In this document: positions 63 through 46,250 of the stretch, piece after piece
Position numbering within the stretch: the first letter of the stretch is position 1
Layout: each line of letters opens with the position of its first letter
DNA from: Squalus acanthias
Taxonomy: Eukaryota
Direction: 5' to 3'
NCBI GenBank assembly: GCA_030390025.1
Contig: JASTWF010000335.1
Coordinates: 372,001-436,000 of the forward strand
DNA length: 64,000 nt
Translations under genes and position numbers: made by a program
Notes under the pieces: generated by a model
What the model was told of the DNA's origin: nothing
Databases searched by the model: none
What the model saw: the letters and a program-made list of their open reading frames with translations, nothing else

Positions 63-101
63 TCAGCTGGAGTGGGTTGGATGCTTTGCAATCACGTCAT
101 G
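63..101 (-). CDS. MS4A: MS4A probable terminal coding exon ([12 protein letters not shown])
   Basis: Strong acceptor atattttattcttttgcag, phase-0 frame ending in TGA at 63-65; the 3' UTR runs off the window. Confidence 0.6.
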   Translation of the reverse strand, partial: HDVIAKHPTHSS

Positions 102-3100: not shown

Positions 3101-6100
3101 TTTGCCGGCACTCCCGATCCCTGGTGGCCCAGCTGGGCGCTGGGACGCGCTGCGTCAGGCCCCTCCCTTTTAATAAGGGGAGGAAGGCCTGCAGTACCGC
3201 GGTGCGAGGTGCCGTGATATTGGCTCGCAGCGCCCCAAGAGGGACGTGGGGCGCTTCCAGTAGCGCCCCTCCTCCCTCTCGGGGCGCTACCTGGGAAAAT
3301 CGGCCGCGAGGTCGCTAACTTTTTCGGGGCGCTAAGGGCGAAGGTAGCGCCCAATTTTTCACCCTGATTCTCCCTTACTTCTCCTTCAATTTGTTCCCAA
3401 CTGACCCATCGCTAGCAACAAGTTTTACTTAATTTTTTGTCCTTGCTCCTCCCACCTTCTCTATACACCGGGCACTGTTCTTGCTGTGATTATCCCTCGG
3501 CCGAGGTGTGATAAAGGGCAGTTGGAAAGATTAACTGTAATCATCTGGCAGTGTTCTCTGACTATATATGCCGTGCCTATATGCATCTCTTCACTTCATC
3601 TGACGAAGGAGCAGCGCTCCGAAAGCTTGTGATTTCAAATAAAGCTGTTGGACTATAACCTGGTGTTGGGCGACTTCTCACACTTACCAGAATTGTGTAA
3701 GCATTCTCAAAATGAAATAAGCTCTTGTAGTTATAAAAGGCAATGATAACTGCGATGCCCATCTCCAACACTGTGAAGAGCAGGAGAGCTATCGTTAAGG
3801 AAAATGTCGTCGCCTGTTGGAAGCAAGGCACAAGGTCGATTAACTCTTAGCTCTTGTAAAATAATGACACATTTCATGGCACTTCATACTGGTGAAGTTG
3901 GAGATAAAGACAAAATTTCAATCTTCACTAAGCTGAGCCTCGTCAAATATGTGTATGGAGATGATTAGAACACAAAAGGACTGCTTTTGAATTGAAACAG
4001 GCGAACTAGCTCCAGCCCTACAACCCTCCGAGATCTCTGCGCTCCTCCAATTCTAGACTCATGCGCATCCCGATTTTAATCGCTCCACCTTTGGCAGCCG
4101 TGGCTTCAGCTGCCTAGGCCCCAAAGATCTGGAATTCCCTCCCTAAGCCTCTCTTTCCTCCTTTAAGACGCTCCTTAAAACCTACCTCTTTGACCAAGCT
4201 TTTGGTCGCCTGTCCTAATATCCCCTGATGTGGCTCAGTGTCAAATTTTGTTTTATAACCCTCCTGTGACGCGCCTTGGGCTGTTTTAGTAAATTAAAGG
4301 TGTTCTAGAAGTTGTTGTTGTAAGGGCTGTGTGGAACAGTGGGATACATCAGACTGCCTGGGGTCTGCGGACCCAAGTAGGGGCCATACGAGGGCCCCAG
4401 AGGGTTGGCGATGATTGACATGTCTGTCTCTCTGGCGTTGGGCACAGAAGGACAGCATCTGGAGAATTCTGTACTTTACTGCCTTTCCGTTGTGGCTGTA
4501 TACGAGCAAATATGTTTCTGCAACGATAGTACTGTATTCGTCAGAGTGCCAATACCTGCTGCCCCAATCCTCCAAGTGTCAATATCTGCAGCCCACCACT
4601 TCAGAGTGTCAATATCTGCAGTGACCCCCTCAGAGTGTCAATATCTGCAGCCCGACCCCCTCGGAGTGTCAATATCTGCAGTCCCACCAGCTCAGAGTGT
4701 CAATATCTGCAGTGACCCCCTCAGAGTGTCAATATCTGCAGCCCACCCCTTCAGAGTGTCAATATCTGCATCCCCACCCCCTCAGAGTGTCAATATCTGC
4801 AGCCCACCCCCTCAGTGTCAATATCTGCAGTGACCCCCTCAGAGTGTCAATATCTGCAGTGACCCCCTCAGAGTGTCAATATCTGCAGCTCCACCCCCTC
4901 AGAGTGTCAATATCTGCAGCCCACCACTTCAGAGTGTCAATATCTGCAGTGACCCCCTTTTGAGTGTCAATATCTGCAGCCCGACCCCCTCGGAGTGTCA
5001 ATATCTGCAGTCCCACCAGCTCAGAGTGTCAATATCTGCAGAAACCCCTCAGAGTGTCAATATCTGCAGAAACCCCTCAGAGTGTCAATATCTGCAGCTC
5101 CACCCCCTCAGTGTCAATATCTGCAGTCCCACCCCCTCAGAGTGTCAATATCTGCAGTCCCACTCCCTCAGAGTGTCAATATCTGCAGTCCCACCCCCTC
5201 AGAGTGTCAATATCTGCAGTTCCACCCCCTCAGAGTGTCAATATCTGCAGTCCCACTCCCTCAGAGTGTCAATATCTGCAGTCCCACCCCCTCAGAGTGT
5301 CAATATCTGCAGTCCCACCCTCTCAGAGTGTCAATATCTGCAGTCCCACCCCCTCAGAGTGTCAATATCTGCAGCTCCACCCCTAGAGAGTGTCAATATC
5401 TGCAGGTCCACCCCCTCAGAGTGTCAATATCTGCAGTCCCACCCCCTCAGTATCAATATCTGCAGCCCCACCCCCTCAGAGTCAATATCTGTAGTCCCAC
5501 CCCCTCAGAGTCAATATCTGTAGTCCCACCCCCTCAGAGTGTCAATATCTGCAGTCCCACCCCCTCAGAGTGTCAATATCTGCAGTGACCCCCTCAGAGT
5601 GTCAATATCTGCAGTCCCACCCCCTCAGTGTCAATATATGTAGTCCCATCCACTCCGAGTGTCAATGTCTGCAGCCCCACACCCTCAGAGTGACAATATC
5701 TTCAGTCTTACCCCCTCAGTGTGTCAATATCTGCAGTCCCATCGGTTCAGAGTGTCAATATCTGCAGCCCCATCCCCCGGAGTGTCAACATCTGCAGTCC
5801 CACCCCCTCAGAGTGTCAATATCTGCAGTGACCCCCTCAGTGTCAATATCTGCAGTCCCACCCCCTCAGAGTGTCAATATCTGCAGTGACCCCCTCAGTG
5901 TCAATATCTGCAGTCCCAGCCCCTCAGAGTGTCAATATCTGCAGTGACCCCCTCAGTGTCAATATCTGCAGTGACCCCCTCAGAGTGTCAATATCTGCAG
6001 TGACCCCCTCAGTGTGTCAATATCTGCAGTGACCCCCTCAGTGTGTCAATATCGGCAGTGACCCCCTCGGAGGGTCAATATCGGCAGTGACCCCCTCAGT

Positions 6101-9100
6101 GTCAATATCTGCAGTGACCCTCTCAGTGTCAATATCGGCAGTGACCCCCTCACAGTGTCAATATCGGCAGTGACCCCCTCAGTGTGTCAATATCGGCAGT
6201 CCCACCACCTCAGAGTGTCAATATCTGCAGTCCCACCCCCTCAGTGTGTCAATATCGGCAGTCCCACCACCTCAGAGTGTCAATATCGGCAGTCCCACCA
6301 CCTCAGAGTGTCAATATCTGCAGTCCCACCCCCTCAGAGTGTCAATATCTGCATCCCCACCCCCTCAGAGTGTCAATATCTGCAGTCCCACCCCCTCAGA
6401 GTGTCAATATCTGCATCCCCACCCCCTCAGAGTGTCAATATCTGCAGTCCCACCCCCTCAGAGTGTCAATATCTGCAGCCCCACCCTGTCAGAGTGCGAA
6501 TATCTGCAGTCCCACCAGCTCAGAGTGTCAATATCTGCACTGTCCCCCTCAGAGTGTCAATACCTGCAGTGTCTCCCTCAGAGTGTCAATATCAGCAGCC
6601 CCACCCCCTCAGAGTGTCAATATCTGCAGTGTCTCCCTCAGAGTGTTAATATCAGCAGCCCGTGCGAATATCTGCAGTATCCCTCTCAGATTTGCCATTA
6701 GCTGCAGTGTCCACCTCCGAGTGTCAAGATCTGCTGTCCCACTGCCTGAGTGTCAATATCTGCAGTCTCACCCCCGAGAGTGTCAACATCTGCAGCCCCA
6801 CCCCCTCAGAGTGACAATATCTGCAGCTGCAGCCCCTCAGAGTGACAATATCAATGATAGGATAATTGTACAGGGTCTGTGGGTTGGGTAGAGTCAATGA
6901 TAGGATAATTGTACAGGGTCTGTGGGTTGGGTAGAGTCAATGTGAGGACAATTGTACAGGGTCTGTGGGTCGGGTAGAGTCAATGTGAGGATAATTGTAC
7001 AGGGTCTGTGGGTTGGGTAGAGTCAATGTGAGGATAATTGTACAGGGTCTGTGGGTTGGGTAGAGTCAATGATAGGATAATTGTACAGGGTCTGTGGGTT
7101 GGGTAGAGACAATGATAGGATAATTGTACAGGGTCTATGGGTCGGGTAGAGTCAATGATAGGACAATTGTACAGGGTCTGTGGGTTGGGTAGAGTCAATG
7201 ATAGGATAATTGTACAGGGTCTGTGGGTTGGGTAGAGTCAATGATAGGATAATTGTACAGGGTCTGTGGGTTGGGTAGAGTCAATGATAGGACAATTGTA
7301 CAGGGTCTATGGGTTGGGTAGAAACAATGATAGGACAATTGTACAGGGTCTATGGGTTGGGTAGAAACAATGATAGGACAATTGTACAGGGTCTGTGGGT
7401 TGGGTAGAGTCAATGTGAGGATAATTGTACAGGGTCTGTGGGTTGGGTAGAGTCAATGTGAGGATAATTGTACAGGGTCTGTGGGTTGGGTAGAGTCAAT
7501 GATAGGATAATTGTACAGGGTCTGTGGGTTGGGTAGAGTCAATGATAGGATAATTGTACAGGGTCTGTGGGTTGGGTAGAGACAATGATAGGATAATTGT
7601 ACAGGGTCTATGGGTCGGGTAGAGTCAATGATAGGACAATTGTACAGGGTCTGTGGGTTGGGTAGAGTCAATGATAGGATAATTGTACAGGGTCTGTGGG
7701 TTGGGTAGAGTCAATGATAGGACAATTGTACAGGGTCTATGGGTTGGGTAGAAACAATGATAGGACAATTGTACAGGGTCTATGGGTTGGGTAGAAACAA
7801 TGATAGGACAATTGTACAGGGTCTGTGGGTTGGGTAGAGTCAATGATAGGATAATTGTACAGGGTCTGTGGGTTGGGTAGAGACAATGATAGGATAATTG
7901 TACAGGGTCTGTGGGTTGGGTAGAGACAATGATAGGATAATTGTACAGGGTCTGTGGGTTGGGTAGAGTCAATGTGAGGACAATTGTACAGGGTCTGTGG
8001 GTTGGGTAGAGTCAATGATAGGATAATTGTACAGGGTCTGTGGGTTGGGTAGAGTCAATGTGAGGATAATTGTACAGGGTCTGTGGGTTGGGTAGAGTCA
8101 ATGATCGGACAATTATACATAGTTTGTGCGTTGGTTAGCATCAATGATAGAACAACTGTACATACATGGTCTGTGCGTTGGTTATATCAAGAACAGGACA
8201 TACATGGCATGGAAGGAATAGGTCTGATGGGCTGCAAGACCTTTATTTAAATTCCATTTTGTCTCATATTTTGAAAGTGCCTGGGCACTTTCTTATGGTA
8301 TGGATTGCCATTAAATAAGATCAATTTAAAACCAAAAAAAGTTTGATAACTCATTTCCTTAAGTATCTCCCTTACAGGAGCATACCGTCCAACATAAATC
8401 ACACAATAAGGCACCATTGCTATTGACTGTAAGACTCACAGAATATAATACTTACGGAAAAATATACAAATTCGGGCGCTGGCGTAAAGAGTAGCGAGAT
8501 GGAATATATTATGATGCCAATTGCTGTTGCACCAGCACTGATGCCGTTCATGAGAAGTCCTGCCTTCATCTAAGTACAATACAACACAGAGCATACGATG
8601 CTTCAAATAGATAGTGTAACGGTTCAATAGTGTCAATTGCACAATCGACGTCACTGGTTACCTATTACAGTTTTTCTGGGAAGTGGAGGGAGGGAGTTTT
8701 ACTTGTCCCGAAATTGTGCTCTGCCATATTATCAGGTGACTGTTCAAGATGGTGTATGATGTTATTTTGTCTGCTATTTTAACAGAGCCAGTGAGCCGTG
8801 TATTTCAAATCATAGAATCAAGAATGATGCAGCACAGAAGGAAGCCATTCGGCCTATCGTGCTTCAGCTATACAGGGTACTGGTGAGGCCACACCTGGAG
8901 TACTGCGTACAGTTTTGGTTTCCATATTTAAGAAAAGATATACTTGCTCTCGAGGCAGTTCAGAGAAGGTTCACTCGGTTGATTCCGGGGATGAGGGGGT
9001 TGACTTATGAGGAACGGTTGAGTAGGTTGGGCCTCTACTCATTGGAATTCAGAAGAATGAGAGGCGATCTTATTGAAACATATAAGATTGTGAGGGGGCT

Positions 9101-12100: not shown

Positions 12101-15100
12101 GTTAATCTTTCTAACTGCCCTTTATCACACCTCGGCAGAGAGATAATCACGGCAATCAAAGGTGTGGATGGTGTCCAAACAGGTCAGTCAGGAAAACATT
12201 ACACCGACAACGTATGAACGGACACCACGCAACAATTGCCAGGCAGGAGTGTTCCCTCCCAGTCGGGGAACACTTCAGCAGTCCAGGACATTCAGCCTCC
12301 GATCTTCGGGTAAGCGTTCTCCAAGGCGGCCTTCGAGACACACAACAACGCAAAATCGTCGAGCAGAAACTGATAGCCAAGTTGCGCACCCATGAGGACG
12401 GCCTCAACCGGGATCTTGGGTTCATGTCACGCTACATGGAACCCCACCTGACGTAGAGTCATCCAGACTGGAGTCGTCGTTGGCTTGTTCTCTCTACACA
12501 GTTGCGGCCGGACCTGCTGTGATTTCCAGCAAAAAAAGTTTTTTGTTTTCCATACAGACCCCAGTATCTGCCACATTGTCTTTGATGGAATGTTTTCCTG
12601 ACTGACCTGTTTGGACACCATCCACACCTCTGATTGCCGTGATTATCTCTCTGCCGAGGTGTGATAAAGGGCAGTTGGAAAGATTAACTGTAATCATCTG
12701 GCAGTGTTCTCTGACTATATATGCTGTGCCTATATGCATCTCTTCACTTCACCTGACGAAGGAGCAGCGCTCCGAAAGCTTGTGATTTCTAATAAAGCTG
12801 TTGGACTCTAACCTGGTGTTGTGCGACTTCTCACATTTGTCCACACCAGTCCAACACCGGCATCTCCACATCATGACTAATAAATCCAATAGGGAATTCA
12901 GGAGAAACTTCTGGTGAGAACGTGGAACTCACAACCACAGGGAGTGGTTGAGGCAAACAGCATAGATGCATTTAAAGGGATGCTGGATAAACACATGAGG
13001 GAGAAAGGAATAGAAGGATATATTGATGGGGTGAGATGAAGAGGGGTGGGAGGAGGCTCCTGTGGAGCATAAACACTGGCATTGACCTGTTGGGCTGAAC
13101 GGCCTTTTTCTGTGCGGGCAATACTTTGTAATACTTTGTCAATTGCACGCACAGGCTCCAAGTGGAAATAGCAATTGCACAGCCTTGCTTATAACGCCTA
13201 GACTTTTGACACAAGCTCACTGCTACTTACAATCCACCTGGTCGGCTTCCTCTTCAGCTCAACTGTTAAGGATCCTGAAATAATATACTGGAAGAGAAAC
13301 CAGTCAAGAAGGCAAAATGTTAGTGCTGGTTTGGAATTGGTTCGAATTAGCTGCATCAACATAATTTTGCACTTCAAAGTCACCCGAAAACATGCTGGGG
13401 TTAACGTGCAATATTTGTAACACATTTGATCCTCTGTTCACCACCTTTTACAAGGTAGTTCCGCATGAATGCATCAAATGAATGCATTACAAATATAGCA
13501 CGGTAGAACCTCCACCCCTCAATCTGTTGACACCAAATCTGGGGGTGGAGTTTCCGCTCGGTTTCTTCCAGTGCAACTTGCCCGAAATCTGACCGAGCAC
13601 TGCGAAAGATTGAGGAATTTCGAGCGCAAGTTACGTTTGACGCAAATCGAGTTTCCGCGATCTTTGATGCTGGCTGAAAAAAAAATCGCGCTGGTAGCCG
13701 GTCCCGCCCACAAATCTGGCCGCGCCCCCCCGATCGAAATAATCACCAGGGCGAGTTTCCGCTAATTGCGGCCCTTTGCGGGCCTTCGAGGAGGCTCTTA
13801 AACTTAAGTTGATTCCTTTTAGGCGCGACATTAAATAAATTGAAAACGGAGATAGACAGTTTCATAGAACATAGAACATAGAACAGTACAGCACAGTACA
13901 GGCCCTTCGGCCCTCGATGTTGTGCCGAGCATTGTCCGAAACCAAGATCAAGCTATCCCACTCCCTATCATTCTGGTGTGCTCCATGTGCTTATCCAATA
14001 ACCGCTTGAAAGTTCCTAAAGTGTCCGACTCCACTATCACAGCAGGCAGTCCATTCCACACCCCAACCACTCTCTGAGTAAAGAATCTACCTCGGACATC
14101 CCTTCTATATCTCCCCCCATGCACCTTATAGTTATGCCCCCTTGTAACAGCTACCTCCACCCGAGGAAATAGTCTCTGAACATCCACTCTATCTATCCCC
14201 CTCATCATCTTATAAACCTCTATTAAGTCGCCTCTCATCCTCCTCCGCCCTAAAGAGAAAAGCCCCAACTCCCTCAATCTTTCCTCATAAGACCTCCCCC
14301 CCAAACCAGGCAGCATCCTGGTAAATCTCCTTTGCACTCTTTCCAATGCTTCTACGTCCTTCCTATAGTGAGGTGACCAGAACTGCACACAATATTCCAA
14401 ATGTGGTCTCACCAAGGTCCTGTACAGTTGTAGCATAACCTCACGGTTCTTAAACTCAAACCCCTTGTTAATAAACGCTAACACACTATAGGCCTTCTTT
14501 ACTGCTCTATCCACTTGAGTGGCAACCTTCAGAGATCTGTGGATATGAACCCCCAGATCCCTCTGCTCCTCCACGTTCCTCAGAACCCTGCCGTTGACCC
14601 TGTAATCCTTATTCAAATTTGCCCTACCAAAATGAATCACCTCGCACTTATCAGGGTTAAATTCCATCTGCCATTTTTCGGCCCAGCTCTGCTTCCTATC
14701 AATGTCTCTTTGCAGCCTACAACAGCCCTTCACCTCATCCACTACTCCACCAATCTTGGTGTCATCAGCAAATTTACTGATCCACCCTTCAGTCCCCTCC
14801 TCCAAGTCATTGATAAAAATCACAAACAGCAGAGGACCCAGCACCGACCCCTGTGGCACACCGCTGGTAACTGGTCTCCAGTCCGAAAATTTTCCATCCA
14901 CCACCACCCTCTGCCTTCTATGAGATAGCCAGTTACTTATCCAATCGGCCAAATTTCCCTCTATCCCACAACTCCTTACTTTCTTCATGAGCCGACCATG
15001 GGGAACCTTATCAAACGCCTTACTAAAATCCATGTATACGACATCAACTGCTCTACCTTCATCTACACACTTAGTTACCTCCTCAAAGAATTCAATCAAA

Positions 15101-18100: not shown

Positions 18101-21100
18101 CCCTCTGAGTGAAGAAGTTTCTCCTCATCTCAGTTTTGAAACGGCAGCCCCTTATTCTAAGATTATGCCCCCTAGTTCTAGTCTCACCCATCAGTGGAAA
18201 CATCCTCCCCGCCTCCACCCGATCGAGCCCCCTCACAATCTTATATGTTTCGATAAGATTGCCTCTCATTCTTCTGTATTCCAATGAGTAGAGGCCCAAC
18301 CTACTCAACCTTTCCTCATAAGTCAACCCCCTCATCTCCAGAATCAACCGAGTGAACCTTCTCTGAACTGTAGGTTTCAGACAGGAGTGCGCACGGTCAG
18401 AATTCGGGCTCGGAGGTCAGCCTGCCTCGGGTCACCTTCCAGCCACCCAGTGGTCGCTGAGCTTTGCGCCCAAATTCCTGCTGTGCAATCTCGCTTTGCA
18501 AGGCTCTGCAACAAACAGGAACAGGAGAAGGCCATTCTGCCACATTCAATGTAGCTGGTCTGTATCCTAACTCCATCCCAGTCGCCTTTGGCTCCATATC
18601 CCTTTGTAACTAGTGATCTCAGATTTAACCTTATCCATTGAGGTGGCAGCTACTGTTTTTTTGTGGGTGAGGGTTCCACACTTCTACCACCCTTTACGTG
18701 AAGAAGTGCTTGCTAATTCCTAGTTTGGTAAAAATCTACCCAATTTCTTTAGGGGCTCTCTCCGGGGGTTTCGATTAGCTCGCTCTGTAAGGGTCCTCGG
18801 GACTTTCTGTGTGGTGCTGTCACAATGGACGTCGCTGCCTTCAACAAACATAGAAACATAGAAGATAGGAGCAGGAGCAGGCCATTCGGCCCCTCGAGCC
18901 TGCTCCGCCATTCGATGAGATCATGGCTGATCATCCAAACTCAGTACCCTGTCCCTGCTTTCTCCCCATATCCCTTGATACCTTTAGCTTTAAGAAATAT
19001 ATCTAACTCATTCTTGAATATATTTAATGACTTGGCCTCAACTACCTTCTGTGGTAGAGAATTCCACAGGTTCACCACTGTCTGGGTGAAGAAATTCCTC
19101 CTCATCTCAGTCCTAAATGGCTTACCCCTTATCCTTAGACTGTGACCCCTGGTTCTGGACTCTCCGACCATCGGGAACAGCCTTCCTGCATCTAGTCTGT
19201 CTAGTCCTGTTAGAATTTTATATGTTTCGATGAGATCCCCTCTCATTCTTCTATACTCCAGCGAGTATAAGCCCAATCTACTCAATCTCTCCTCATACGT
19301 CATTCCTGCCATCCCAGGTATCAGTCTGGTGAATCTTCGCTGAACTCCTTCCATGGCAAGAACATCCTTCCTCAGATAAGGCGACCAAAACTGCACACAG
19401 TACTCAAGGTGTGGTCTCACCAAGGCCCTGTACAACTGCAGCAGGACATCCCTGTTCCTATATGCAAACCCTTTCGCTATGAAGGCCAACATACCATTTG
19501 CCTTCTTCACCGCCTGCTGCACCTGCATGCTTACCTTCAGCGACTGGTGCACAAGGACACCCAGGTCTCATTGCACTTCCCCTTCTCCCAATCTATTGCC
19601 ATTCAGATAATAGTCTGCCTTTCTGTTTTTGACACCAAAGTGGATAACCTCGCATTTATCCACGTTATATTGCATCTGCCACGCTTCTGCCCACTCACCC
19701 AACCTGTCCAAATCATCCTGGAGTTTCTCAGTATCCTCCTCGCAGCACACACGCCCACCCAGCTTTGTGTCATCTGCAAACTTGGAGATATTACATTTAG
19801 TTCCCTTATCTAGATCATTAATGTATATTGTGAATAGCTGGGTTCCAAGGACCGAACCCTGCGGTACCCCACTAGTCACTGCCTGCCACTCGGAAAAAGA
19901 CCCATTAATTCCTACTCTCTGCTTTCTGTCCGCCAACCAGTTCTCTGTCCAAGTCAATACCTTGCCCCCAATCCCATGTGCCTTAACTTTACACGCTAAT
20001 CTCTTATGCGGGACCTTATCGAAAGCCTTTTGAAAGTCCAAATACACCACATCTACTGGTTCTCCCTTATCTATTTTCCCAGTTACATCCTCAAAACAAG
20101 ACCACCGCGGTTTGACCAGGAGGTCAAGGGACAAACTGACCCAAATTCCGGTCCAGAAAGAGACTCCGGATTTTCCCGCTACTGAATAGATCAGAGACAC
20201 GGAGAGAGGGACGCCGAAGACAAGCTGCATAATGCCAACCAATATCTGCGTGGCCTGGAGGGAAGGGAAGGATGCAAAACAGAAAAAGGATCATTTTCCA
20301 AGGCAAAGATAAAGCGAGTAACAACTGAAAGGTTAGAGATATTTGGAGGAAACCTCAACAGATGATTGTAAGTCAGTATAAACTGCTACCTTGCTCTACT
20401 GTTCACTGGGAGTAAGATTGGTCTAAAATATGGAGACCAGAACTGTGTACAGTTCTCCAAGTGTGACATGGAGACCAGAACTGTGCACAGTACTCCAAGT
20501 GTGATGTGGAGACCAGAACTGTGCACAGTAACTCCAAGTGTGATGTGGAGACCAGAACTGTGCACAGTAACTCCAAGTGTGATATGGAGACTAGAACTGT
20601 GCACAGTTCTCCAAGTGTGATATGGAGACCAGAACTGTGCACAGTACTCCAAGTGTGATGTGGAGACCAGAACTGTGCACAGTAACTCCAAGTGTGATGT
20701 GGAGACCAGAACTGTGCACAGTAACTCCAAGTGTGATATGGAGACTAGAACTGTGCACAGTAACTCCAAGTGTGATATGGAGACCAGAACTGTGCACAGT
20801 AACTCCAAGTGTGATATGGAGACCAGAACTGTACACAGTAACTCCAAGTGTGATATGGAGACCAGAACTGTGCACAGTAACTCCCAGTGTGATATGGAGA
20901 CTAGAACTGTGCACAGTAACTCCAAGTGTGATATGGAGACCAGAACTGTGCACAGTAACTCCAACTGTGATATGGAGACCAGAACTGTACACAGTAACTC
21001 CAAGTGTGATATGGAGACCAGAACTGTGCACAGTAACTCCAAGTGTGATATGGAGACCAGAACTGTGCACAGTGCTCCAAGTGTGATATGGAGACACGGT

Positions 21101-24100
21101 GGCATAGTGGTTAGCACTGTTGCCTCACAGCGCCAGGGACCCGGGTTCGAATCCAGCCAAGGGTGACTGTCTGTGTGGAGTTTGCACATTCTCCCCGTGT
21201 CTGCGTGGGTTTCCTCCGGGTGCTCCGGTTTCCTCCCACAGTCCAAAGATGTGTGGGTTAGGTTGATTTGGCTATGATAAATTGACCCTTAGTGTTAGGG
21301 GGATTAAATACGTGGGGTTACGGGGCTAGGGTGGGATATGTGTCGGTGCAGGCTCGATGGGCCGAAATGGCCTCTATCTGCACTGTGGGCATTCTGTGAT
21401 TCTGAGACCAGAACTGTGCTCAGTAACTCCAAGTGTGATATGGATACCAGAACGGTGCACAGTGCTCCAAGTGTGATATGGAGACCAGAACTGTGCACAG
21501 TAACTCCAAGAGTGGTCATATAAGTCACATGGTTAGCAAGGACCAATCAGCTCCAAGAGTCACTTGGTGCCACAAAAACAGAAGGAAGACAATTTAAACT
21601 TCCACAAACTGAACTTTTGAGAAAGTTAAAATAAATCAAAACCGGTCGATATAAATGTAAACAATGAAAAATTCAACATCTTAACTGAAATTTGAACTAT
21701 GTTGAAGATGAAGGCCTGGTCAAGACCCTGGGACTCAATTTATGAGCTAGCCCAGGGAGAGGCATCAGCTGCTTAGATCTACCCATTTAAACAAAAAACC
21801 TCTGCCTATGAGCAATGCCATGAGACTGGAATATGAAATGAGTAGGAGGCACCCACCCACTTTTATCCCAGGCATAACCAGGGTTCAGAATGTCTCGCAG
21901 TCCCCCTTAACGTATAAAATTCTGGGAACGAGCGGTTCTTTCATGAACCCTCGTGATGCTCGCATTGTGAACAGAGAAAGGGGCGGCTGCACACCAAGTA
22001 CTGCCATTATGTCAAACTTATGAAAGAAAAGTGTTTTTGATGTTTACTCCCAAAGCTTTCAGTTCTCTCCTCAGAATCCACAGCTCAGATGAGGCTGCAG
22101 ATGTAGTGGAGGTGACCTGGACCGCCACAGGGACTGTTGTCGGTTCGTATGATACGTGGTGAGCTTTGTTGTCCACTTCTCTCCTTTCATCCGGATTGGA
22201 GACAGACGGTTCCTGCGGAGAGAACAAGATCAGTCATCTTTCCGTTGGGATTTTTGTCAGTCTTGATAAGAGAAAGCAGTTGGCATGTTAGCATTTACGA
22301 ACATAAGAAATAGGAGCAGGAGTAGGCCACACTTGGACGTAAAGCATGGCTGATTATCTACCTCAACTCCACTTTCCCGCCCTATTTCCATATCCCTCGA
22401 TTCCCTCAGTGTCCAAACATCTCTCGCTCTCAGCCTTGAAGGATGTTCTTGCCATGGAAGGAGTTCAGCGAAGATTCACAAGGCTGATACCTGGGATGGC
22501 AGGAATGACATATGAGGAGAGATTGGGTCGATTGGGCTTATACTCACTGGAGTTTAGAAGAATGAGAGGGGATCTCATCGAAACATATAAAATTCTAACA
22601 GGACTGGACAGACTAGATGCAGAGTCCAGAACCAGGGGTCATAATCTAAGGATAAGGGGTAAGCCATTTAGGACAGAAATGAGGAAGAATTTCTTCACCC
22701 AGAGAGTGGTGAACCTGTGGAATTCTCTACCACACAAGGCAGTTGAGGCCAAGTCATTAAATATATTCAAGAATGAGTTAGATATATTTCATAAAGCTAA
22801 AGGTATCAAGGGATATGGGGAGAAAGCAGGTACAGGGTACTGAGTTTAGATGATCAGCCATGATCTCATCGAATGGCGGAGCAGGCTCGAGGGGCCGAAT
22901 GGCCTACTCCTGCTCCTATCTTCTATGTTTCTATGAATATACTCAACGACTGAGCATCCACAGCCCTCTGGGGGAGAGAATGCCAAAGGTTCACAACCCT
23001 CTGAGTGAAGAATTTTCTCATCTCAGTCCTAAATGGCCGACCCCTTAGCCTGAGACTGTGACCCCTTGTTCCAGACTTCCCAGCCAGGGGAAAACAGCCT
23101 CTCAGCATCTACTCTGTCAAGCCCTTTAAGAATTTTAGACATTTCAATGAGATCGCCTCTCATTCTTCTAAACTCCAGGGAATATAGGCCCGTTCTACTC
23201 GATCACATGGCTAGCTTCAAGCATTTCTATCTGGTGTGGTTGGTTCTGTGCATTTTGAGGTCAAGGAGGCCGCTGTACATGGTAGCATTGAGTTGGCGAT
23301 TCTCAGCACAGTACTATATCTGACCATACCTGACTAATACAGGGGCAGATGGGTGGATTTAATAGATAATGACCTCAACATGAGTCACGGGACTGCCAGG
23401 GTCTACAAGATCCCAGCATCAGTCCACTGACCAAGCCTGACCCCACTGACTTATCGGGCTGGATTTTCAATGACCCGTGGAGTCGGGTTTGGAGGCGTGT
23501 GGGGGGTTAAAGTTGCAGATTCGGGGGTCCCGACCCCATCCCGACTCCATTCCGCCTCCACGCAATTTTGACAAAATCGGTTGCGGGGTTCCCGACTCCG
23601 TCCCGCCTCCAAGAGGCGGGAGAGGCCATTAAAGCCCTTAACAAGCCCTAAATTGGCTCTGTAATGCCATTTCGAAACGTTTTAGCTAGTTTAACCCTTT
23701 TCCAACGTGAATTACGCCTGATGTGAAACACGCCAGTGAAACCTGCCGGGAGCACAAGTGGATAGCTGACTATCAGCTGCAGGTCCACTATTACAACGGA
23801 GATGTGATGAAGGTAGTAGTAGTATTAGGTCTGAAAGTCGCCTCTGATGCTGCTGCATTGAATGTCTTCAGAGACTGCCTGGGAGGACTTGGTTGGAAAA
23901 AAAATTCTCTCTCACTCTCTCTCTCTCTGCGATGCTGCTCATTTTGCATCCAGGTCCTCTCACAGCAAAGGCCAGGCAATCTCTGAGACCAGGCAGTCTC
24001 TGACCTGCAATGATGACATCATCAGAGGCGACTTTCAGACTGAAACCACTAATTGGGTCATGGGTTCCCACATGCTGGAACTCAATTGCCCAATTAGGTG

Positions 24101-27100
24101 AAAATTGCATCAATCTCCCACATCCAATTGCAGGCGGGTGGATAACACGACCCCAACCCGCCCCAGTATCAAAATCCAGCCCATCGTCTCACTCTCAGCT
24201 TTGGTCCGCCTGGTTTGCACTGCGGCGAGCAGTAGATCTCAACAATTCCGAACTTCCCTTCGGATCCAAGGACAGGGGTTAATGGAAATGGAGCACGATA
24301 TTGCGCCAGGCGATCACTTGGAGGCAGGAGGGACAGTGTGAGTGCCCACCACAGGACAAGGAAGCCCTTGGTGGTATTTCAACGTTGAACTGAAAAAAGG
24401 CAACACGGACAAAAGGATCAGAGACGCACCTAACAAATGGGGAAAGTAGTTGTCAAGCCCCAAGGTGGGTGGATTAGGTAAAAATTGTCACGCAGAGAGC
24501 CGGAGAGAGATCAAAATCAGGAGTATTTATAAATTACGTGACAAACAGTTTGAGCACGTGGATGGAAGAAGAATCTTACATTAGACTGCTGCGGATTTTG
24601 TTGGGGTGTACTTGGTGCCAACCTGGTGAAACGGGCAGGTGGCATCGCTGCCGGTTCTGGTGGTGGTGCTTGCATCGCAAAGGCATTGGCACGCACTGGC
24701 TGTTCCTGGGCAGCTGGCTAGAAGAGGGAATGCACACCGTCACATTTTTTTTTAATACACTGTCGCTGAACGAAACAAAACTCCAAAACATCCAAAACTC
24801 TGCTGGCCCCGTATCCTAACTAGCACCAAGTCCCGTTCACCCATCACCACCTGCCCTACCTCCCCCACCCCCGTGCTCGCTGGCCTACATTGGCTCCCGG
24901 TCCGGCAAAGCCTCGATTTTAAAATTCTCATCCTCGTGTTCAAAGCCCTCCATGGCCTCACACCATCCTGCCCCCCACCACCCCCACCTCGCTCCCTACC
25001 TTGCATTTATACAGCGCCTTTATAGTAAAATGTCCCAAGATGCTTCACAGGAGCGGTTAACAAACAAGATTTGACACCGAGTCACATAAGGAGCTATTTG
25101 GACAGATGACCAAAAGCTTTATCAAAGAGGTAGGTTTTAAGGAGTTCCAACGCACTCCTGGCTGGCCTCTCGCATTCAACCCTACGTCAACTTGAGGTCA
25201 TCCAAAACTCGGCTGCCCGTGTCCTAACTCGCACCAAGTCCCGTTCGCCCATCACCCCCTGTGCTCGCTGACCTACATTGGCTCCCGGTTAAGCAGCGAC
25301 TCGATTTCAAAATTCTCATCCTTGTTTTCAAATCCCTCCATGGCCTTGCCCCTCCCCATCTCTGTAACCTCCTCCAGTCCCTACAAACCTCCCTATCTCT
25401 GTAACCTCCTCCAACCCTACAACCCTCCCTATCTCTGTAACCTCCTCCAACCCTACCTATCTCTGTAACCTCCTCCAGCCCCTACAACCCTCCCTATCTC
25501 TGTAACCTCTTCCAACCCTATAACCCTCCCTATCTCTGTAACCTCCTCCAGCCCCTACAACCCTCCCTATCTCTGTAACCTCCTCCAACCCTACAACCCT
25601 CCCTATCTCTGTAACCTCCTCCAGCCCCTACAACCCTCCCTATCTCTGTAACCTCCTCCAGCCCCTACAACCCTCCCTATCTCTGTAACCTCCTCCAGCC
25701 CCTGCAACCCTCCCTATCTCTGTAACCTCCTCCAACCCTACAATCCTCCCTATCTCTGTAACCTCCTCCAGCCCCTACAACCCTCCCTATCTCTGCAACC
25801 TCCTCCAACCCTACAACCCTCCCTATCTCTGTAACCTCCTCCAACCCTCCCTATCTCTGTAACCTCCTCCAGCCCCTACAACCCTCCCTATCTCTGTAAC
25901 CTCCTCCAGCCCCTACAACCCTCCCTATCTCTGTAACCTCCTCCAGCCCCTACAACCCTCCCTATCTCTGTAACCTCCTCCAGCCCCACAACCCCCCGAG
26001 ATATCTGCACTCCTCGAATTCTGCCCTCTTTAGCATCCCTGATTATAATCGCTCAACCATTGGTGGCCGTGCCTTCTGTTGCCTGGGCCCTAAGCTCTGG
26101 AATTCCCTCCCTAAACCTCTCTGCTTCTCTACTTCTCTTTCCTCCTTTAACATGATCCTTAAAACCTACCTCTTTGACCAAGCTTTTGGTCACCTGCTCT
26201 AATTTCTCCCTATGTGGCTCGGTGTCAAATTTTTTGTCTTATAATACTCCTGTGAAGCGCCTTGGGATGTTTTACTACATTAAAGGCGTTATATAAATAC
26301 AAGTTGTTGTTGAGTGTCTTAAAGGAGGAAAGAGGTAGAGAGGTTTAGGGAGGGAATTCCAGAGCTTAGGGCCTAGGCAGCTGAAGCCACGGCCACCAAT
26401 GGTGGAGCGATTAAAATCGGGGGTGCGCAAGAGGACAGAATTGGAGGAGCGCAGAGATTTTGGAGGGTGGTAGGACTGGAGGAGGTTACAGTGATAGGGA
26501 GGGGGGAGGCCATGGAAAGATTTGAACACAAGGATGAGAACTTTAAAAGCGAGGTGTTAAAGTTAATGATCCTATGGCACTATTCCAAGAAGGAGGAGGA
26601 AACATAGAAACATAGAAGATAGGAGCAGGAGTAGGCCATTCGGCCCCTCGAGCCTGCTCCGCCATTCGATGAGATCATGGCTGATCATCCAAACTCAGTA
26701 CCCTGTCCCTGCCTTCTCCCCATATCCCTTGATACCTTTAGCTTTAAGAAATATATCAAACTCCTTCTTGAATATATTTAATGACTTGGCCTCAACTACC
26801 TTCTGTGGTAGAGAATTCCACAGGTTCACCACTCTCTGGGTGAAGAAATCTTCCTCATTTCTGTCCTAAATGGCTTACCCCTTATCCTTAGATTATGACC
26901 CCTGGTTCTGGACTCTCCGACCATCGGGAACATCCTTCCTGCATGTAGTTTGTCCAGACCTGTCAGAATTTTATATGTTTCGATGAGATCCCCTCTCATT
27001 CTTCTATACTCCAGCGAGTATAAGCCCAATCGACCCAATCTCTCCTCATATGTCATTCCTGCCATCCCAGGTATCAGCCTTGTGAATCTTCGCTGAACTC

Positions 27101-29447
27101 CTTCTTTTCCATCGCAGGCTCGAGGGGCTGAATGGCCTACTCCTGTTCCTATGTTCATCCATCTTAGTTCAGCTGCGATTTTTGTTGCAGGAATTGAGTG
27201 GGACTGGACTCATTATTCCAACAATAACGTGCATTTATAGAGCAGCTTTAACATCAAAATAAACCCGCAAAGGCTTCTCGTCACACAGGCGTAAAGAAAA
27301 AAATGGATGCCGAGCCGAAGAAGGATGGGTGGAAATGGTGGGTTTTAAGGAAGATCTTAAAGGAGGAGAGGGAGGTGGAGAGGCAGAGAGGTTTAAGGAG
27401 GACAGCAGGGGGCCTAGACGGCCGAATGCAGGAGATGAACAAGAGGCCAGAGGCGGAGGAGCAGAGAGTTCTGCGGGAGGTGGGGGGGGGGGGGGGGGCG
27501 GTGGGTGGTTGTAGGGCTAGAGGAGATTGAGGATATTGTGGAGATGGGGAGCCAATGAAGGTCAGTGACACAGGGGCAGTGGGGGAGCGGCACTAAAACT
27601 GACTAGATATTTTAGTAGCTTCTCCCACCATGCAAACAACCTCGGTCTGTATATCGCCATTTGTGTTTATACGGGTTGAAGTTGCTTGTTTGGTGGGAAT
27701 ATCTATTAAAGCGGCAGAGTTATTATCTAAATGGAAAAAAACTGCAAAGTGCTACAGTACAAAGGGATCTGGGGGTCCTGGTGCATGAAACACAGAAGGT
27801 TAGTATGCAGGTACAGCAGGTGATCAGGAAGGCCAATGGAATCTTGGCTTTTATTGCAAGGGGGATGGAGTATAAACGCAGGGAAGTCTTGCTCCAGCTA
27901 TACAGGGCACTGGTGAGGCCACACCTGGAGTACTGCGTACAGTTTTGGTTTCCATATTTAAGAAAAGATATACTTGCTCTCGAGGCAGTTCAGAGAAGGT
28001 TCACTCGGTTGATTCCGGAGATGAGGGGGTTGACTTATGAGGAAAGGTTGAGTAGGTTGGGCCTCTACTCATTGGAATTCAGAAGAATGAGAGGCGATCT
28101 TATCAAAACATATAAGATTGTGAGGGGGCTTGATCGGGTGGAGCCGGGGAGGATGTTTCCACTGATGGGTGAGACTAGAACTAGGGGGCATAATCTTAGA
28201 ATAAGGGGCTGCCGTTTCAAAACTGAGATGAGGAGAAACTTCTTCACTCAGAGGGTAGTAAATCGATGGAATTTGCTACCTCAGAGAGCTGTGGAAGCTG
28301 CGACATTAAATACATTTAAAACGGAGATAGACAGTTTCCGAGCTGATAAGGGAATTAAGGGTTATGGGGAGCGGGCAGGGAAGTGGACGTGAGTCTCGGT
28401 TCTGATCAGCCATGATCCTATTGAATGGCGGAGCAGGCCCGAGGGGCCGTATGGCCCACTCCTGCTCCTACTCCTTATGTTCTTATGTTCTAAGTAGGGG
28501 ACACATCTTCTTCTTCAAAACTTGGACGTAAAGCATCGCCTAGCTGGAGCTCATACGGGAAACCCTCTTTCAATTTCATGGATCAAAAATCTGGCAAGCT
28601 GTTTTATCTGATACTCCCCACCCATATTCCCACCTGGAAAATCTGCCTGTAAGTCCACATACAACAACAACAACAGCTTGCGTCGATACAGCGCCTTTAA
28701 CATTGTAAAAGCGACTAAAATAGGGGATGCGCAAGAATTGGAGGAGCGCAGAGATCGCGGAGGGTTGTCGGGCTGGAGGATGTGGAGATGCCGGTGTTGG
28801 ACTGGGGTGGACAAACGTGAGAAGTCGCACAACACCAGGTTATAGTCCAACTGCTTTCTTTGAAATCACAAGCTTTCGGAGCGCTGCTCTTTCGTCAGGT
28901 GAAGTGAAGAGATGCATATAGGCATGGCATATATAGTCAGAGAACACTGCCAGATGATTACAGTTAATCTGGAGGCGGTTACAGACATAAGGAGGGGTGC
29001 GAGACAATCGAGGTATTTCAAAACAAGGATAAGAATTTTAAAATGGAGGTGGTGCCGGATCGGAAGCCAATGTAGGTCAGCGAGCGCAGGTGGGCGAACG
29101 GGACTTGGTGCGAGTTAGGATATGGGGCAGCACATAGTCGTCCTTTACATACACCTAGCGAGAGAGAAGGGGCTGAGTTGGGGGCAGAGGGAGACAAACA
29201 GGAAGGAGAAACAGCAGGCACGTGGCCAGCGGGCGCAAACACAGACCAGTGAGATACAATGACTGCCTGCAAGTTACAGGACCCGCTTGGCGAACAGATT
29301 TTGCGTGCTTACGTTGATCGTTAGGTGTTGCGGCTTGGGTGTATTCGGCGGCGTAGTGACGGCACTGGGGGCTGGCGTTGCCGTGCCGCTTTCTGGGGCT
29401 GGTGTTGGCAGGTCATTGGCCCAGTTGCCTGCAGTCAGGTCGTCCAT
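63..29447 (-). CDS. MS4A: Spliced MS4A-family (CD20-like tetraspan) gene, 8 coding exons, 295 aa: MDDLTAGNW...[23 protein letters not shown]...[20 protein letters not shown]...|[12 protein letters not shown]...|[26 protein letters not shown]...|[12 protein letters not shown]
   Basis: Manually assembled exons of 135+138+165+114+57+114+126+39=888 nt, all phase 0 with AG/GT boundaries and no internal stop. Family motifs occur in order: E(P/L)KALG, QILxG, SGxxFW, YIISGSL (57-nt exon), MNxxSA, LLFTVLE. The subfamily or orthologue cannot be assigned by eye. Confidence 0.9.
265..975 (+). mobile_element. CR1-type LINE 3' fragment with an internal ~99-bp segment in three tandem copies
   Basis: RT C-terminal motifs ([17 protein letters not shown]); segment repeated at ~279, ~378 and ~477. 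Confidence 0.85.
1135..1590 (+). mobile_element. CR1/HER1-like LINE 3' fragment
   Basis: [12 protein letters not shown]...[11 protein letters not shown]; 3' stem-loop and short GTTCTTA tail. Confidence 0.9.
1591..2080 (-). mobile_element. Two Deu-core/L2-tailed SINE fragments (SacSINE/AmnSINE-like)
   Basis: Same block (gacctcaggacgtcccaaagc...gcacagcaagctcc...cacctccgacagtgcagcgc) recurs at 32.8, 54.4 and 58.6 kb; family name is from memory, not a search. Confidence 0.6.
2358..3364. mobile_element. Non-autonomous TIR (Harbinger-like) element interrupted by a CR1 fragment (2441-2946, +)
   Basis: Left end GGGGGCTAAATTCAGTTG resembles the reverse complement of the 32315 end; right end AATTTTTCACCC; GC-rich interior. 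Confidence 0.6.
3484..3683. mobile_element. Penelope-like terminal-repeat fragment with a hammerhead motif (3595-3632, +)
   Basis: Near-identical to the 12640-12835 arm; CTGACGA-A-GGAGC-AGC-GCTCC-GAAA-GCTT. Confidence 0.8.
3688..3813 (-). CDS. MS4A: MS4A coding exon 7, TM4 ([42 protein letters not shown])
   Basis: Acceptor ccttgcttccaacag, donor CTG|gtaagt; hydrophobic helix with the LE motif. Confidence 0.9.
4010..4320 (+). mobile_element. L2-like LINE 3' fragment
   Basis: Similar to 25980-26310; ends in a gttgttgtt tail. Confidence 0.7.
4545..6850. repeat. Minisatellite, ~27-31-bp unit CAGAGTGTCAATATCTGCAGTCCCACCCCCT
   Basis: Direct tandem repetition with a variable C-rich segment. Confidence 0.95.
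6850..8150. repeat. Minisatellite, 43-bp unit GTCAATGATAGGATAATTGTACAGGGTCTGTGGGTTGGGTAGA
   Basis: About 30 highly homogeneous tandem copies. Confidence 0.95.
8456..8569 (-). CDS. MS4A: MS4A coding exon 6, TM3 ([38 protein letters not shown])
   Basis: Acceptor ttgtattgtacttag, donor TCC|gtaagt; MNxxSA motif. Confidence 0.9.
8810..10958 (-). mobile_element. CR1 LINE fragment hosting three nested CR1 insertions (8859-9464 +, 9827-10236 -, 10270-10779 -)
   Basis: Host sequence resumes after each insert, with short duplications gtgc and ctcat; RT C-terminal ORFs. Confidence 0.8.
10959..11352. mobile_element. Palindromic Penelope-like terminal-repeat element with two opposed hammerhead motifs (11048-11085 -, 11266-11303 +)
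   Basis: Left and right halves are reverse complements around ~11175. Confidence 0.8.
11915..12874. mobile_element. Penelope-like element: ~285-bp inverted arms around a GIY-YIG endonuclease C-terminal remnant
   Basis: Arms 11915-12200 and 12590-12874 are reverse complements. ORF 12214-12456 (MNGH...PVGEHF...H...RKIVEQKLI...GLNRDLG) resembles a PLE GIY-YIG tail. Hammerhead motifs at 12004-12041 (-) and 12748-12785 (+). Confidence 0.85.
13231..13287 (-). CDS. MS4A: MS4A coding exon 5, TM2 ([19 protein letters not shown])
   Basis: Acceptor ggtttctcttccag, donor ATT|gtaagt; short 57-nt F/YIISGSL exon typical of MS4A genes. Confidence 0.92.
13542..16019. mobile_element. Non-autonomous Harbinger-like TIR element with nested LINEs
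   Basis: TIRs GGGGTGGAGTTTCCGCT / AGCAGAATCTCTACCCC flanked by a CTG duplication. Confidence 0.7.
13864..15470 (-). mobile_element. 5'-truncated CR1 LINE with an uninterrupted 498-aa RT frame (13948-15444)
   Basis: Motifs [42 protein letters not shown]; 3' tail reads (CATAGAA)n on the plus strand. Confidence 0.95.
16520..17115 (-). mobile_element. CR1 LINE 3' fragment with extended 3' UTR, inserted into another LINE 3' end (~16270-17190)
   Basis: RT C-terminal ORF 16717-17124; tcaag duplicated at the junctions. Confidence 0.85.
17860..18370 (-). mobile_element. CR1 LINE 3' fragment inside a GC-rich putative TIR element (~17378-18480)
   Basis: RT C-terminal ORF 18042-18347; host begins GGGGGTGAAATTGG like the other TIR elements. 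Confidence 0.8.
18847..20096 (-). mobile_element. 5'-truncated CR1 LINE (RT with a stop codon)
   Basis: [27 protein letters not shown]; its 5' truncation lies ~45 nt from the MS4A exon-4 donor. Confidence 0.92.
20141..20254 (-). CDS. MS4A: MS4A coding exon 4, TM1 ([38 protein letters not shown])
   Basis: Acceptor ccttcccttccctccag, donor TGG|gtcagt; QIxxG and SGxxFW motifs. Confidence 0.92.
20425..21510. repeat. 40-bp minisatellite derived from a CR1 RT segment
   Basis: Unit GAGACCAGAACTGTGCACAGTAACTCCAAGTGTGATATG(G); the reverse strand reads [12 protein letters not shown] as in CR1 ORF2. Confidence 0.9.
21094..21402 (+). mobile_element. tRNA-derived HE1/V-SINE-like element inserted in the minisatellite
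   Basis: A box TGGCATAGTGG, B box GGTTCGAATCC, V-core gtggagtttgcacattctccccgtgtctgcgtggg, LINE-like 3' stem-loop. Confidence 0.88.
22048..22212 (-). CDS. MS4A: MS4A coding exon 3 (EPSVSNPD...[12 protein letters not shown])
   Basis: Acceptor ttgttctctccgcag, donor GGA|gtaaac; ends in the MS4A pre-TM1 ExKALG motif. Confidence 0.88.
22300..23195 (-). mobile_element. CR1 fragment with a nested opposite-strand CR1 fragment (22437-22933 +)
   Basis: RT C-terminal ORFs on both strands; tgaa repeated at the junctions. Confidence 0.8.
23456..24182. mobile_element. Non-autonomous Harbinger-like TIR element
   Basis: Perfect 12-bp TIR GGGCTGGATTTT / AAAATCCAGCCC with a 3-bp ATC duplication. Confidence 0.8.
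24580..24717 (-). CDS. MS4A: MS4A coding exon 2 ([46 protein letters not shown])
   Basis: Acceptor cattccctcttctag, donor AAT|gtaaga, 138 nt, phase 0, Pro/Gln-rich. Confidence 0.75.
24780..26560. mobile_element. Cluster of L2-like LINE 3' fragments, including a 36-37-bp internal tandem expansion (25350-25990)
   Basis: L2-type motifs ([30 protein letters not shown]); unit CCCTCCCTATCTCTGTAACCTCCTCCAGCCCCTACAA. Confidence 0.8.
26601..27105 (-). mobile_element. CR1 LINE 3' fragment
   Basis: RT C-terminal ORF 26826-27158; GTTTCTAT tail. Confidence 0.9.
27715..28491 (+). mobile_element. CR1 LINE 3' fragment
   Basis: QRDLGVLV...[11 protein letters not shown]...[15 protein letters not shown] tail. 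Confidence 0.92.
28779..28968. mobile_element. Penelope-like terminal-repeat fragment with hammerhead motif (28866-28903 -) inside an L2 fragment
   Basis: Matches the 11915 arm; one stem-II substitution. Confidence 0.8.
29313..29447 (-). CDS. MS4A: MS4A coding exon 1 ([45 protein letters not shown])
   Basis: Acceptor ccttttctaatttcgcag|C ATG G (exon starts at 29448), donor AAC|gtaagc; Pro/Thr-rich open frame. Confidence 0.75.
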
Positions 29448-29639
29448 GCTGCGAAATTAGAAAAGGAGCAACAGATTTTAACAACATTTTCTGACCCAGA
29501 GTGCTTCGAAATGAAGCTAATCCTCACTGAAGAGAGCTGCAATGTAGACCGCAGAACACAGAACTTAAACTGTCACGCATGCTAACTGTGAGGTGCAAGC
29601 TCAAAACGATATATGCACATCGTAACTCGCAGAACACTC

Positions 29640-34020: not shown

Positions 34021-34289
34021 TCTGACAGGGGCCTCCTGTCGGAAACGTTGGGACTTTGTCTTCAGGCCACCCTTAAAAGTGACCTGTATTAAGATAGTGC
34101 AGAGAGGACTGTCATACAAATAGGTTAAACATTTGTCATCTCCAATTACTCACTCGGAGTTTGAATCCTCTCTATCAGTGGTATCCTCTCTCAGGTTCAT
34201 CATCCTCTCTCAGGTGTATTCACTCTCCGGGTGGTTGATCTTCTCTTTTCCCAGGTGTTGTACTCTCTTTCTCAGGTATATGATTCTCT

Positions 34290-37200: not shown

Positions 37201-37440
37201 TTGTATATCACTCTCTCAGATGTTGTATATCACTCGCTCAGATGGTGTATATCACTCTCTCAGATGTTGTATATCACTCTCTCAGATGGTGTATATCACT
37301 CTCTCAGATGGTGTATATCACTCTCTCAGATGTTGTATATCACTCTCTCAGATGGTGTATATCACTCTCTCAGATGGTGTATATCACTCTCTCAGATGTT
37401 GTATATCACTCTCTCAGATGCTGTATATCACTCGCTCGTG
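34290..37440. repeat. 22-bp minisatellite CTCTCTCAGATGTTGTATATCA
   Basis: About 140 tandem copies with 19/20-bp deletion variants. Confidence 0.97.
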
Positions 37441-46200: not shown

Positions 46201-46250
46201 TCTGGTTGTCTCAGCTTGTCTCAGGTTGTCTCCTCTCTCTCCTCTTCTCT
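40200..46250. repeat. Compound satellite of TCTCAGGTTG (10-bp) and TCTCCTCTCTCAGGTTG variants
   Basis: About 6 kb of variant units (CAGG/CGGG/CAGC, TTG/ATG). Confidence 0.95.

Follow-up and report, generated by a model that had tools for sequence, protein, structure and literature searches.

The window analyzed here, a 64,000-nucleotide stretch of Squalus acanthias DNA, carries an intact MS4A gene of a short-loop subfamily, one that our searches found only in cartilaginous fishes, and the exon encoding its fourth transmembrane segment (TM4) ends in a YxxL-x6-YxxL pattern reminiscent of an ITAM. This shark and ray subfamily is undescribed, and the motif is a real and conserved feature of it. 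With a probability that we put at roughly 0.55, we favor the reading that the motif marks a conserved face of a TM4 helix continuing into the cytoplasm of this chondrichthyan protein, and that it is more likely structural than a signaling switch.

Gene structure and location of the motif

The gene lies on the minus strand between positions 34203 and 63, where nine coding exons separated by GT-AG introns join into one 312-amino acid frame with a terminal stop only; the eight exons other than that of TM4 were located by scans for hydrophobic segments and by tblastn. The exons, and the motif within them, are as follows.

34154..34203, minus strand: coding exon 1, with the start codon and an acidic N-terminus; phase-2 donor GTGAGT
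29313..29448, minus strand: coding exon 2, Pro/Thr-rich N-terminal tail
24580..24717, minus strand: coding exon 3, Pro/Gln-rich N-terminal tail
22048..22212, minus strand: coding exon 4, part of the N-terminal tail, with the pre-TM1 helix at its end
20141..20254, minus strand: coding exon 5, TM1 and the start of TM2
13231..13287, minus strand: coding exon 6, end of TM2 and the intracellular loop
8456..8569, minus strand: coding exon 7, TM3 and a short second extracellular loop without Cys
3688..3813, minus strand: coding exon 8, 42 codons in phase 0/0, with TM4 and the stretch that continues it into the cytoplasm
3688..3729, minus strand: YxxL-x6-YxxL pattern (Y287, L290, Y297, and L300, with the invariant F293 between them), last 14 codons of the TM4 exon
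63..101, minus strand: coding exon 9, the final 12 residues followed by a TGA stop; AG acceptor; 12/12 identical to the end of Scyliorhinus P0010

The initial annotation had assigned the sequence to a cartilaginous-fish MS4A protein, an identity borne out by a predicted four-TM fold of the catshark orthologue, by the scores of the orthologues P0001, P0004, and P0011 against Pfam PF04103 (MS4A/CD20-like; 57.5–64.9 bits, cut-off 27.9), and by relatives in sharks and rays, with the window protein 81–82% identical to P0004 and P0001; the window's TM4 exon searched alone scored against no family. The ITAM-like pattern described at the end of that exon is likewise present, in an intact MS4A frame on the minus strand, and fits the consensus YxxL/I-x6-8-YxxL/I as proposed. 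It is encoded at 3729-3688 (the surrounding 16-codon stretch is 3688-3735), with the codons of the four motif residues at 3729-3727 (Y287), 3720-3718 (L290), 3699-3697 (Y297), and 3690-3688 (L300) and 12 last-exon residues to follow, and it forms the 3' end of a 126-nt exon (3813-3688) with an AG acceptor and a GTAAGT donor in phase 0. A single match to such a pattern is weak proof, since YxxL/I-x6-8-YxxL/I occurs nine times, the window motif included, in the 105,709 residues of the window's six-frame translation and arises in 0.7% of cases when the 28-residue tail is shuffled; what counts is whether the pattern is conserved.

Three contigs of two related organisms span the exon and intron unbroken and are 95–99% alike, and among the differences listed for these contigs those in the exon fall at 3748, 3750, and 3751, with none of the listed ones inside the motif. 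A 202-bp interspersed repeat at 3481-3682, which has five more copies in the window (93–96% alike), lies in the donor-site region of the motif exon. In contigs of two related organisms, 3683 joins directly to sequence matching about 3450-3480; the insertion is thus recent, and it left the GT donor intact.

Several other features of the window deserve mention. Exon 8456-8569, encoding TM3, is missing from the gene models of four species (P0002, P0003, P0014, and P0021), and a three-pass form without TM3 would flip TM4 and make the motif extracellular, if such an isoform is real. The first coding exon of another MS4A gene, covering the pre-TM1 part and closely matching P0120, is found at 58236-58379 (minus strand); no TM exons matching it turned up in the downstream part of the window, where tandem repeats make up most of the sequence. 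In the introns and the upstream DNA, very long minisatellite and low-complexity arrays with periods of 10–43, along with dinucleotide runs, occur at 4541-8162, 34286-46245, and 54755-63220, and a gap of 200 N bases lies near 59480-59679.

Orthologues and conservation of the motif

Searching with the TM4 exon returned 7 proteins among 18 candidates, every one from a shark, and a profile search (16 matches among 7,999 scored) added the basking shark, three rays, and the record P0015. Among 1.84 billion representatives searched, 488 matched, with scores that drop to the generic MS4A level past the orthogroup, and no orthologue from outside the cartilaginous fishes appeared among the 16 profile matches or the best 150 of these 488 representatives (10 of them taxonomically named). 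ESM Atlas returned clusters with generic MS4A and TMEM196 names (0.88–0.91) and, for the Heptranchias protein P0030 discussed below, MS4A clusters.

In a quick 153-row tree, the orthogroup falls within a 21-row clade of MS4As with a short second loop (SH-aLRT 98), while a careful 46-row tree gives 100/98 for the orthogroup, just 90/35 for the wider short-loop clade, and a position for P0015 outside sharks and rays. All six short-loop paralogues that we looked up come from sharks or rays, and three of them lie on contigs equal in length to that of an orthologue, which points to a tandem cluster. The P0002 model from Rhincodon continues past the TM4 exon of this gene into a pair of short-loop paralogues located downstream, which resemble P0095/P0189 and P0052, and it is likely an annotation fusion that reveals the tandem order.

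The motif is kept in 21 of 23 orthologue records, the exceptions being a partial record that stops short of TM3 and a Mobula model whose frame is lost immediately downstream of the TM4 Glu. To describe conservation we used 11 rows, one per species and excluding Mobula: the window, seven sharks, two rays, and P0015. Both Tyr, both Leu, and the length of the six-residue spacer, whose conservation among orthologues the initial annotation had proposed as a check, are unchanged in all 11. Across these rows, 14 of the 42 columns of the TM4 exon are invariant, and within the 14-residue motif span the invariant offsets are 0, 3, 6, 10, and 13, corresponding to the four motif residues and one Phe at offset 6. 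Conservation goes on past the second Leu, where an Asp and a Val are invariant in the nine sequences that have the last exon.

It could be argued that the pattern arose by chance within an exon that evolves slowly throughout, under no special constraint, given that one in three core columns shows no variation to begin with (49 of 150), that 10 of 19 Leu columns are invariant, and that shark orthologue exons are 81–95% identical. We find this quite improbable. Only one of the five other Tyr columns is invariant, the joint chance of all four motif positions being invariant is about 0.01–0.02 (with columns treated as independent and the sequences being related), and the motif is also kept in rays and in the deepest-branching record, at 52–56% whole-protein identity. 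Phe never replaces either motif Tyr in the 11 sequences, and does so in three of the five other Tyr columns. This invariance above background, together with Tyr that is never Phe, indicates that the motif residues are under real constraint. The lack of Tyr-to-Phe exchange favors a role for the hydroxyls and to that extent counts against a structural reading, although a never-Phe Tyr pair suits tight packing as well as a hydroxyl need.

Sequence context of the motif

Positions relative to the membrane were counted from the conserved TM4 Glu in 145 other MS4A representatives, of which 121 have this anchor and 118 are also long enough. The first motif Tyr falls at +12, and, just as the initial annotation had suspected, this is where other MS4As have a Cys (96 of 118, with Trp in 8); Tyr is found there in just 1 of the 121. 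Lys or Arg occupies +13 in 70 of the 118, and Leu, Ile, or Val occupies +15 in 60, with Leu at +15 also in 8 of the 11 motif-less short-loop paralogues (anchors set by hand). The first module is thus a Cys-Lys-x-hydrophobic stretch of the family in which the Cys has changed to Tyr. Two further cautions raised at the outset also proved sound: the first Tyr is near the membrane, with the best 19-residue hydrophobic window of the TM4 exon stopping two residues before it, and the upstream acidic residue is absent. The ITAM consensus is given as D/E/N-x-x-YxxL (PMC4536121; PMC11663944), and the window motif and its orthologues lack this acidic lead-in, the −3 position being Phe in 10 of 11 and Leu in the other.

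These features bear on whether the motif is a full, independent ITAM, in which the helix would mask both Tyr at rest and, on clustering, unfold or come off the membrane to expose them to Src-family kinases and SH2 domains, making the protein the signaling partner of a putative shark receptor. The exact YxxL-x6-YxxL in 11 of 11 sequences while 9 of 10 other span positions vary, a spacer as short as that of FceRI-beta (PMC3353146), and the rarity of the Cys-to-Tyr change at +12 would all suit such a function. Yet besides the closeness of the first Tyr to the hydrophobic span and the missing acid, Lys or Arg directly follows the first Tyr in 11 of 11, the FceRI-beta-type middle Tyr is absent, and the motif lies in one exon, whereas ITAMs of classical signaling subunits are described as being interrupted by an intron within their first module (PMC4536121). 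Between −6 and +13, the net charge is 0 to +1 (seven records) vs −3 to −5 in six MS4As with the distal motifs described below. Also against an ITAM, three dogfish MS4A genes (MS4Ax1-3), which may not include the window gene, were reported not to be blood-restricted, in a study whose text makes no mention of an ITAM (PMC2826416). We judge an ITAM function of the window motif unlikely.

An ITIM or ITSM reading was also considered and rejected: two residues before the second Tyr, 9 of 11 sequences have Asn and the two rays have Thr and Ser, a variability that leaves no conserved ITIM.

Predicted structure

The AlphaFold2 prediction for the catshark orthologue P0011, built on a 114-row alignment (pLDDT 92.4, pTM 0.85), places the motif, Y144-L157, inside a single helix spanning 113-163 (block pLDDT 93 and 92), and a model from a shallow alignment (14 rows, pLDDT 51) has the same helix. 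The motif is predicted to be helical rather than part of an accessible, unstructured tail clear of the membrane, and by sequence it starts two residues from the hydrophobic span. AlphaFold can over-extend helices, and ITAMs can themselves be helical on membranes. Among PDB entries, Foldseek matched the model to 8y81_B (TM 0.73) and VIA to 8k7t_B (Z 18.7, rmsd 1.9), with residues 6-148 on 40-199 of mouse FceRI-beta (143 aligned) and residues 7-150 superposing on 49-208 of human FceRI-beta. By sequence and fold together FceRI-beta is the best match, only FceRI-beta and CD20 chains having been matched. The first YxxL overlays modeled, ordered mouse residues at about I195-E198, and as the shark Tyr at +10 aligns by sequence with mouse Tyr193, the first motif Tyr corresponds to Ile195. 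The mouse ITAM, starting at Tyr210 (+27), begins 15 residues past the start of the window motif and outside the 160 modeled residues, and the helix beyond residue 148-150 of the P0011 model lacks a solved counterpart.

The parallel that the initial annotation had drawn with the ITAM of MS4A2 is not supported on several counts, namely a motif at +12 vs +27 in mouse, a neutral to basic context including the Lys/Arg after the first Tyr, and an unbroken helix in the model. We also regard as barely credible the idea that the window gene represents MS4A2 in sharks, as its orthologue, with a motif that is the ancestral FceRI-beta ITAM. Two of the seven first matches carry the automatic name 'FceRI beta-like', the PDB match points the same way, and an AU test on 130 columns does not reject a grouping with P0150, the single MS4A2-like row, which is marsupial and has a long branch (p 0.149), but the best tree places P0150 in a starred 12-row clade (98/95) away from the orthogroup, which instead sits among short-loop paralogues whose named members are all chondrichthyan. 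The second loop has no Cys pair, identity is only 24–27%, and the mouse ITAM lies 15 residues farther from the membrane than the window motif. With P0150 apart in the best tree and an AU p of 0.149, MS4A2 orthology is unsupported, and as the window motif and the MS4A2 ITAM do not occupy homologous positions, the ancestral origin that had been raised for it is unlikely.

Under the helix-face reading that we prefer, TM4 is predicted to run about 20 residues beyond the membrane. The first Tyr and the Lys/Arg after it, with Tyr at the observed position of the family Cys, would anchor the helix at the membrane interface; the first Leu, which is shared across the subfamily, would be a helix residue; and the invariant offsets would together form one helix face that may pack against the equally conserved pre-TM1 helix, which carries an invariant E..L..L-G stripe, or against a partner subunit. 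The motif would look like an ITAM because i, i+3, i+10, and i+13 is also helix-face spacing. By analogy with other MS4As, the protein would serve a membrane complex as a four-pass accessory subunit or as its chaperone and would probably not be a dock for the tandem SH2 domains of Syk/ZAP70. On a helical wheel, the five invariant residues cluster (top 3.5% of subsets), mostly because ITAM spacing forces them to; the Phe alone is independent, and of ten places open to it, it occupies one of the two that fit the helix face best. As an invariant residue that is no element of an ITAM, this Phe supports the modeled helix face. The hydrophobic moment of the window stretch is nonsignificant (12% of shuffles reach it), and values that fewer than 5% of shuffles reach occur in only 5 of the 11 rows, of which one is a mis-joined model. 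A homodimer prediction scored 0.16 and gives no answer on dimerization.

A possible though not probable alternative, judged from the sequence, is that the second YxxL acts by itself, as a YxxPhi sorting signal for the mu subunits of AP complexes or a single phosphotyrosine (hemITAM-like) site, with the first YxxL structural. Motifs of the YxxPhi type are bound by mu subunits (10.1101/2023.12.21.572896). Y297-x-x-L300 stands roughly midway between the membrane and the C-terminus, some 12 residues from each, is specific to the orthogroup (paralogue tails being shorter or unrelated at the same place), and is invariant in 11 of 11 with no Tyr-to-Phe exchange and with Glu or Gln at −3 throughout, which qualifies it as a conserved cytoplasmic YxxPhi. 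YxxPhi-type motifs bind in extended form, however, and this one is predicted to be helical (pLDDT 92). In addition, the residue at −3 is the acid Glu in just 5 of 11, YxxPhi within +16 to +29 is common in other MS4As (13 of 121), and the conserved Asp and Val past the Leu are as would be expected for a helix face.

A distal motif in a second shark MS4A group

YxxL-x6-YxxL also occurs in three of the other 121 representatives, in each case at +41 to +47: the Heptranchias protein P0030 (XP_067850648) and two platypus MS4As. A search with P0030 gave 17 matches among 184 candidates, and the motif is present in all nine further records of its group (44–65% identity), from Heterodontus (such as P0174), Pristiophorus (P0175), and Scyliorhinus canicula (P0178), and absent from all seven more distant matches. 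In all 10 records of this group (P0030 and P0174-P0182), a distal YETL-x6-YxxL in an acidic context is found 47 residues past the TM4 Glu. The group forms a clade (100/98) separate from the window gene. The platypus proteins P0055/P0169 (MS4A4A-like) and P0127/P0171 (MS4A12-like) end in an acidic YxxL-x6-YxxL much like that of the P0030 group, and they group weakly (80/40) with the marsupial P0150, with the start of whose ITAM the distal motifs align by column. One clade uniting the shark distal-motif, platypus, and MS4A2-like rows is absent from the best tree and is not rejected (AU p 0.153). From its sequence, the P0030 group, which lies outside the window, appears to be a much better candidate for an FceRI-beta-type ITAM than the window motif. 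A YxxL-x7-YxxI is also found at the extreme N-terminus of the MS4A representatives P0033 and P0045.

We found no description of an ITAM in a shark MS4A, for either motif, in the literature searched, which left out most subscription journals, and a survey of sharks based on 2014 data states that FcR gamma and classical Fc receptors were not found (PMC4016189). It is doubtful that cartilaginous fishes evolved a second, independent MS4A ITAM through a Cys-to-Tyr change at the end of TM4, one that would be membrane-proximal, held on a helix, and unmasked on activation. If they did, then, together with the distal acidic shark motif, ITAM-bearing MS4A signaling subunits would long predate IgE and would have arisen more than once; a signaling window motif would be an ITAM working right at the membrane surface and offer a handle on shark activating receptors. 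The well-placed acidic motif of the second shark group matters more than the window motif, as it makes the origin of FceRI-beta-type signaling testable.

Comparison with known systems

Like the MS4A/CD20-like family at large, the window gene has four TM helices, a predicted fold matching FceRI-beta and CD20, the TM4 Glu, and phase-0 TM exons; it differs in its very short, Cys-less second extracellular loop, its long Pro-rich N-terminus, its Tyr in place of the juxtamembrane Cys, and a long tail predicted to be helical. Classical ITAM adaptors (FcR gamma, CD3, CD79, and DAP12) share with it the two YxxL modules, but they have a seven-residue spacer, D/E/N at −3, and a first-module intron (PMC4536121), and they are single-pass proteins.

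MS4A2 (FceRI beta), which is named as the ITAM-bearing member of the family (PMC11663944), shares both the MS4A fold and the YxxL-x6-YxxL spacing in a C-terminal tail. Its ITAM tyrosines are Y219, Y225, and Y229, the middle one being noncanonical (PMC3353146), and this ITAM is reported to bind Lyn (PMC8776166; PMC3995055). That ITAM is distal (+27 in mouse), acidic, equipped with a middle Tyr, and beyond the modeled structure, whereas the window motif is at +12, neutral to basic, with an invariant Phe at offset 6 rather than a middle Tyr, and on the predicted TM4 helix. Finally, the second shark group and the platypus proteins P0055 and P0127 resemble the window gene in having a conserved YxxL-x6-YxxL in an MS4A tail, but theirs lies at +41 to +47, near the C-terminus, with Glu or Gln after the first Tyr and a charge of −3 to −5.
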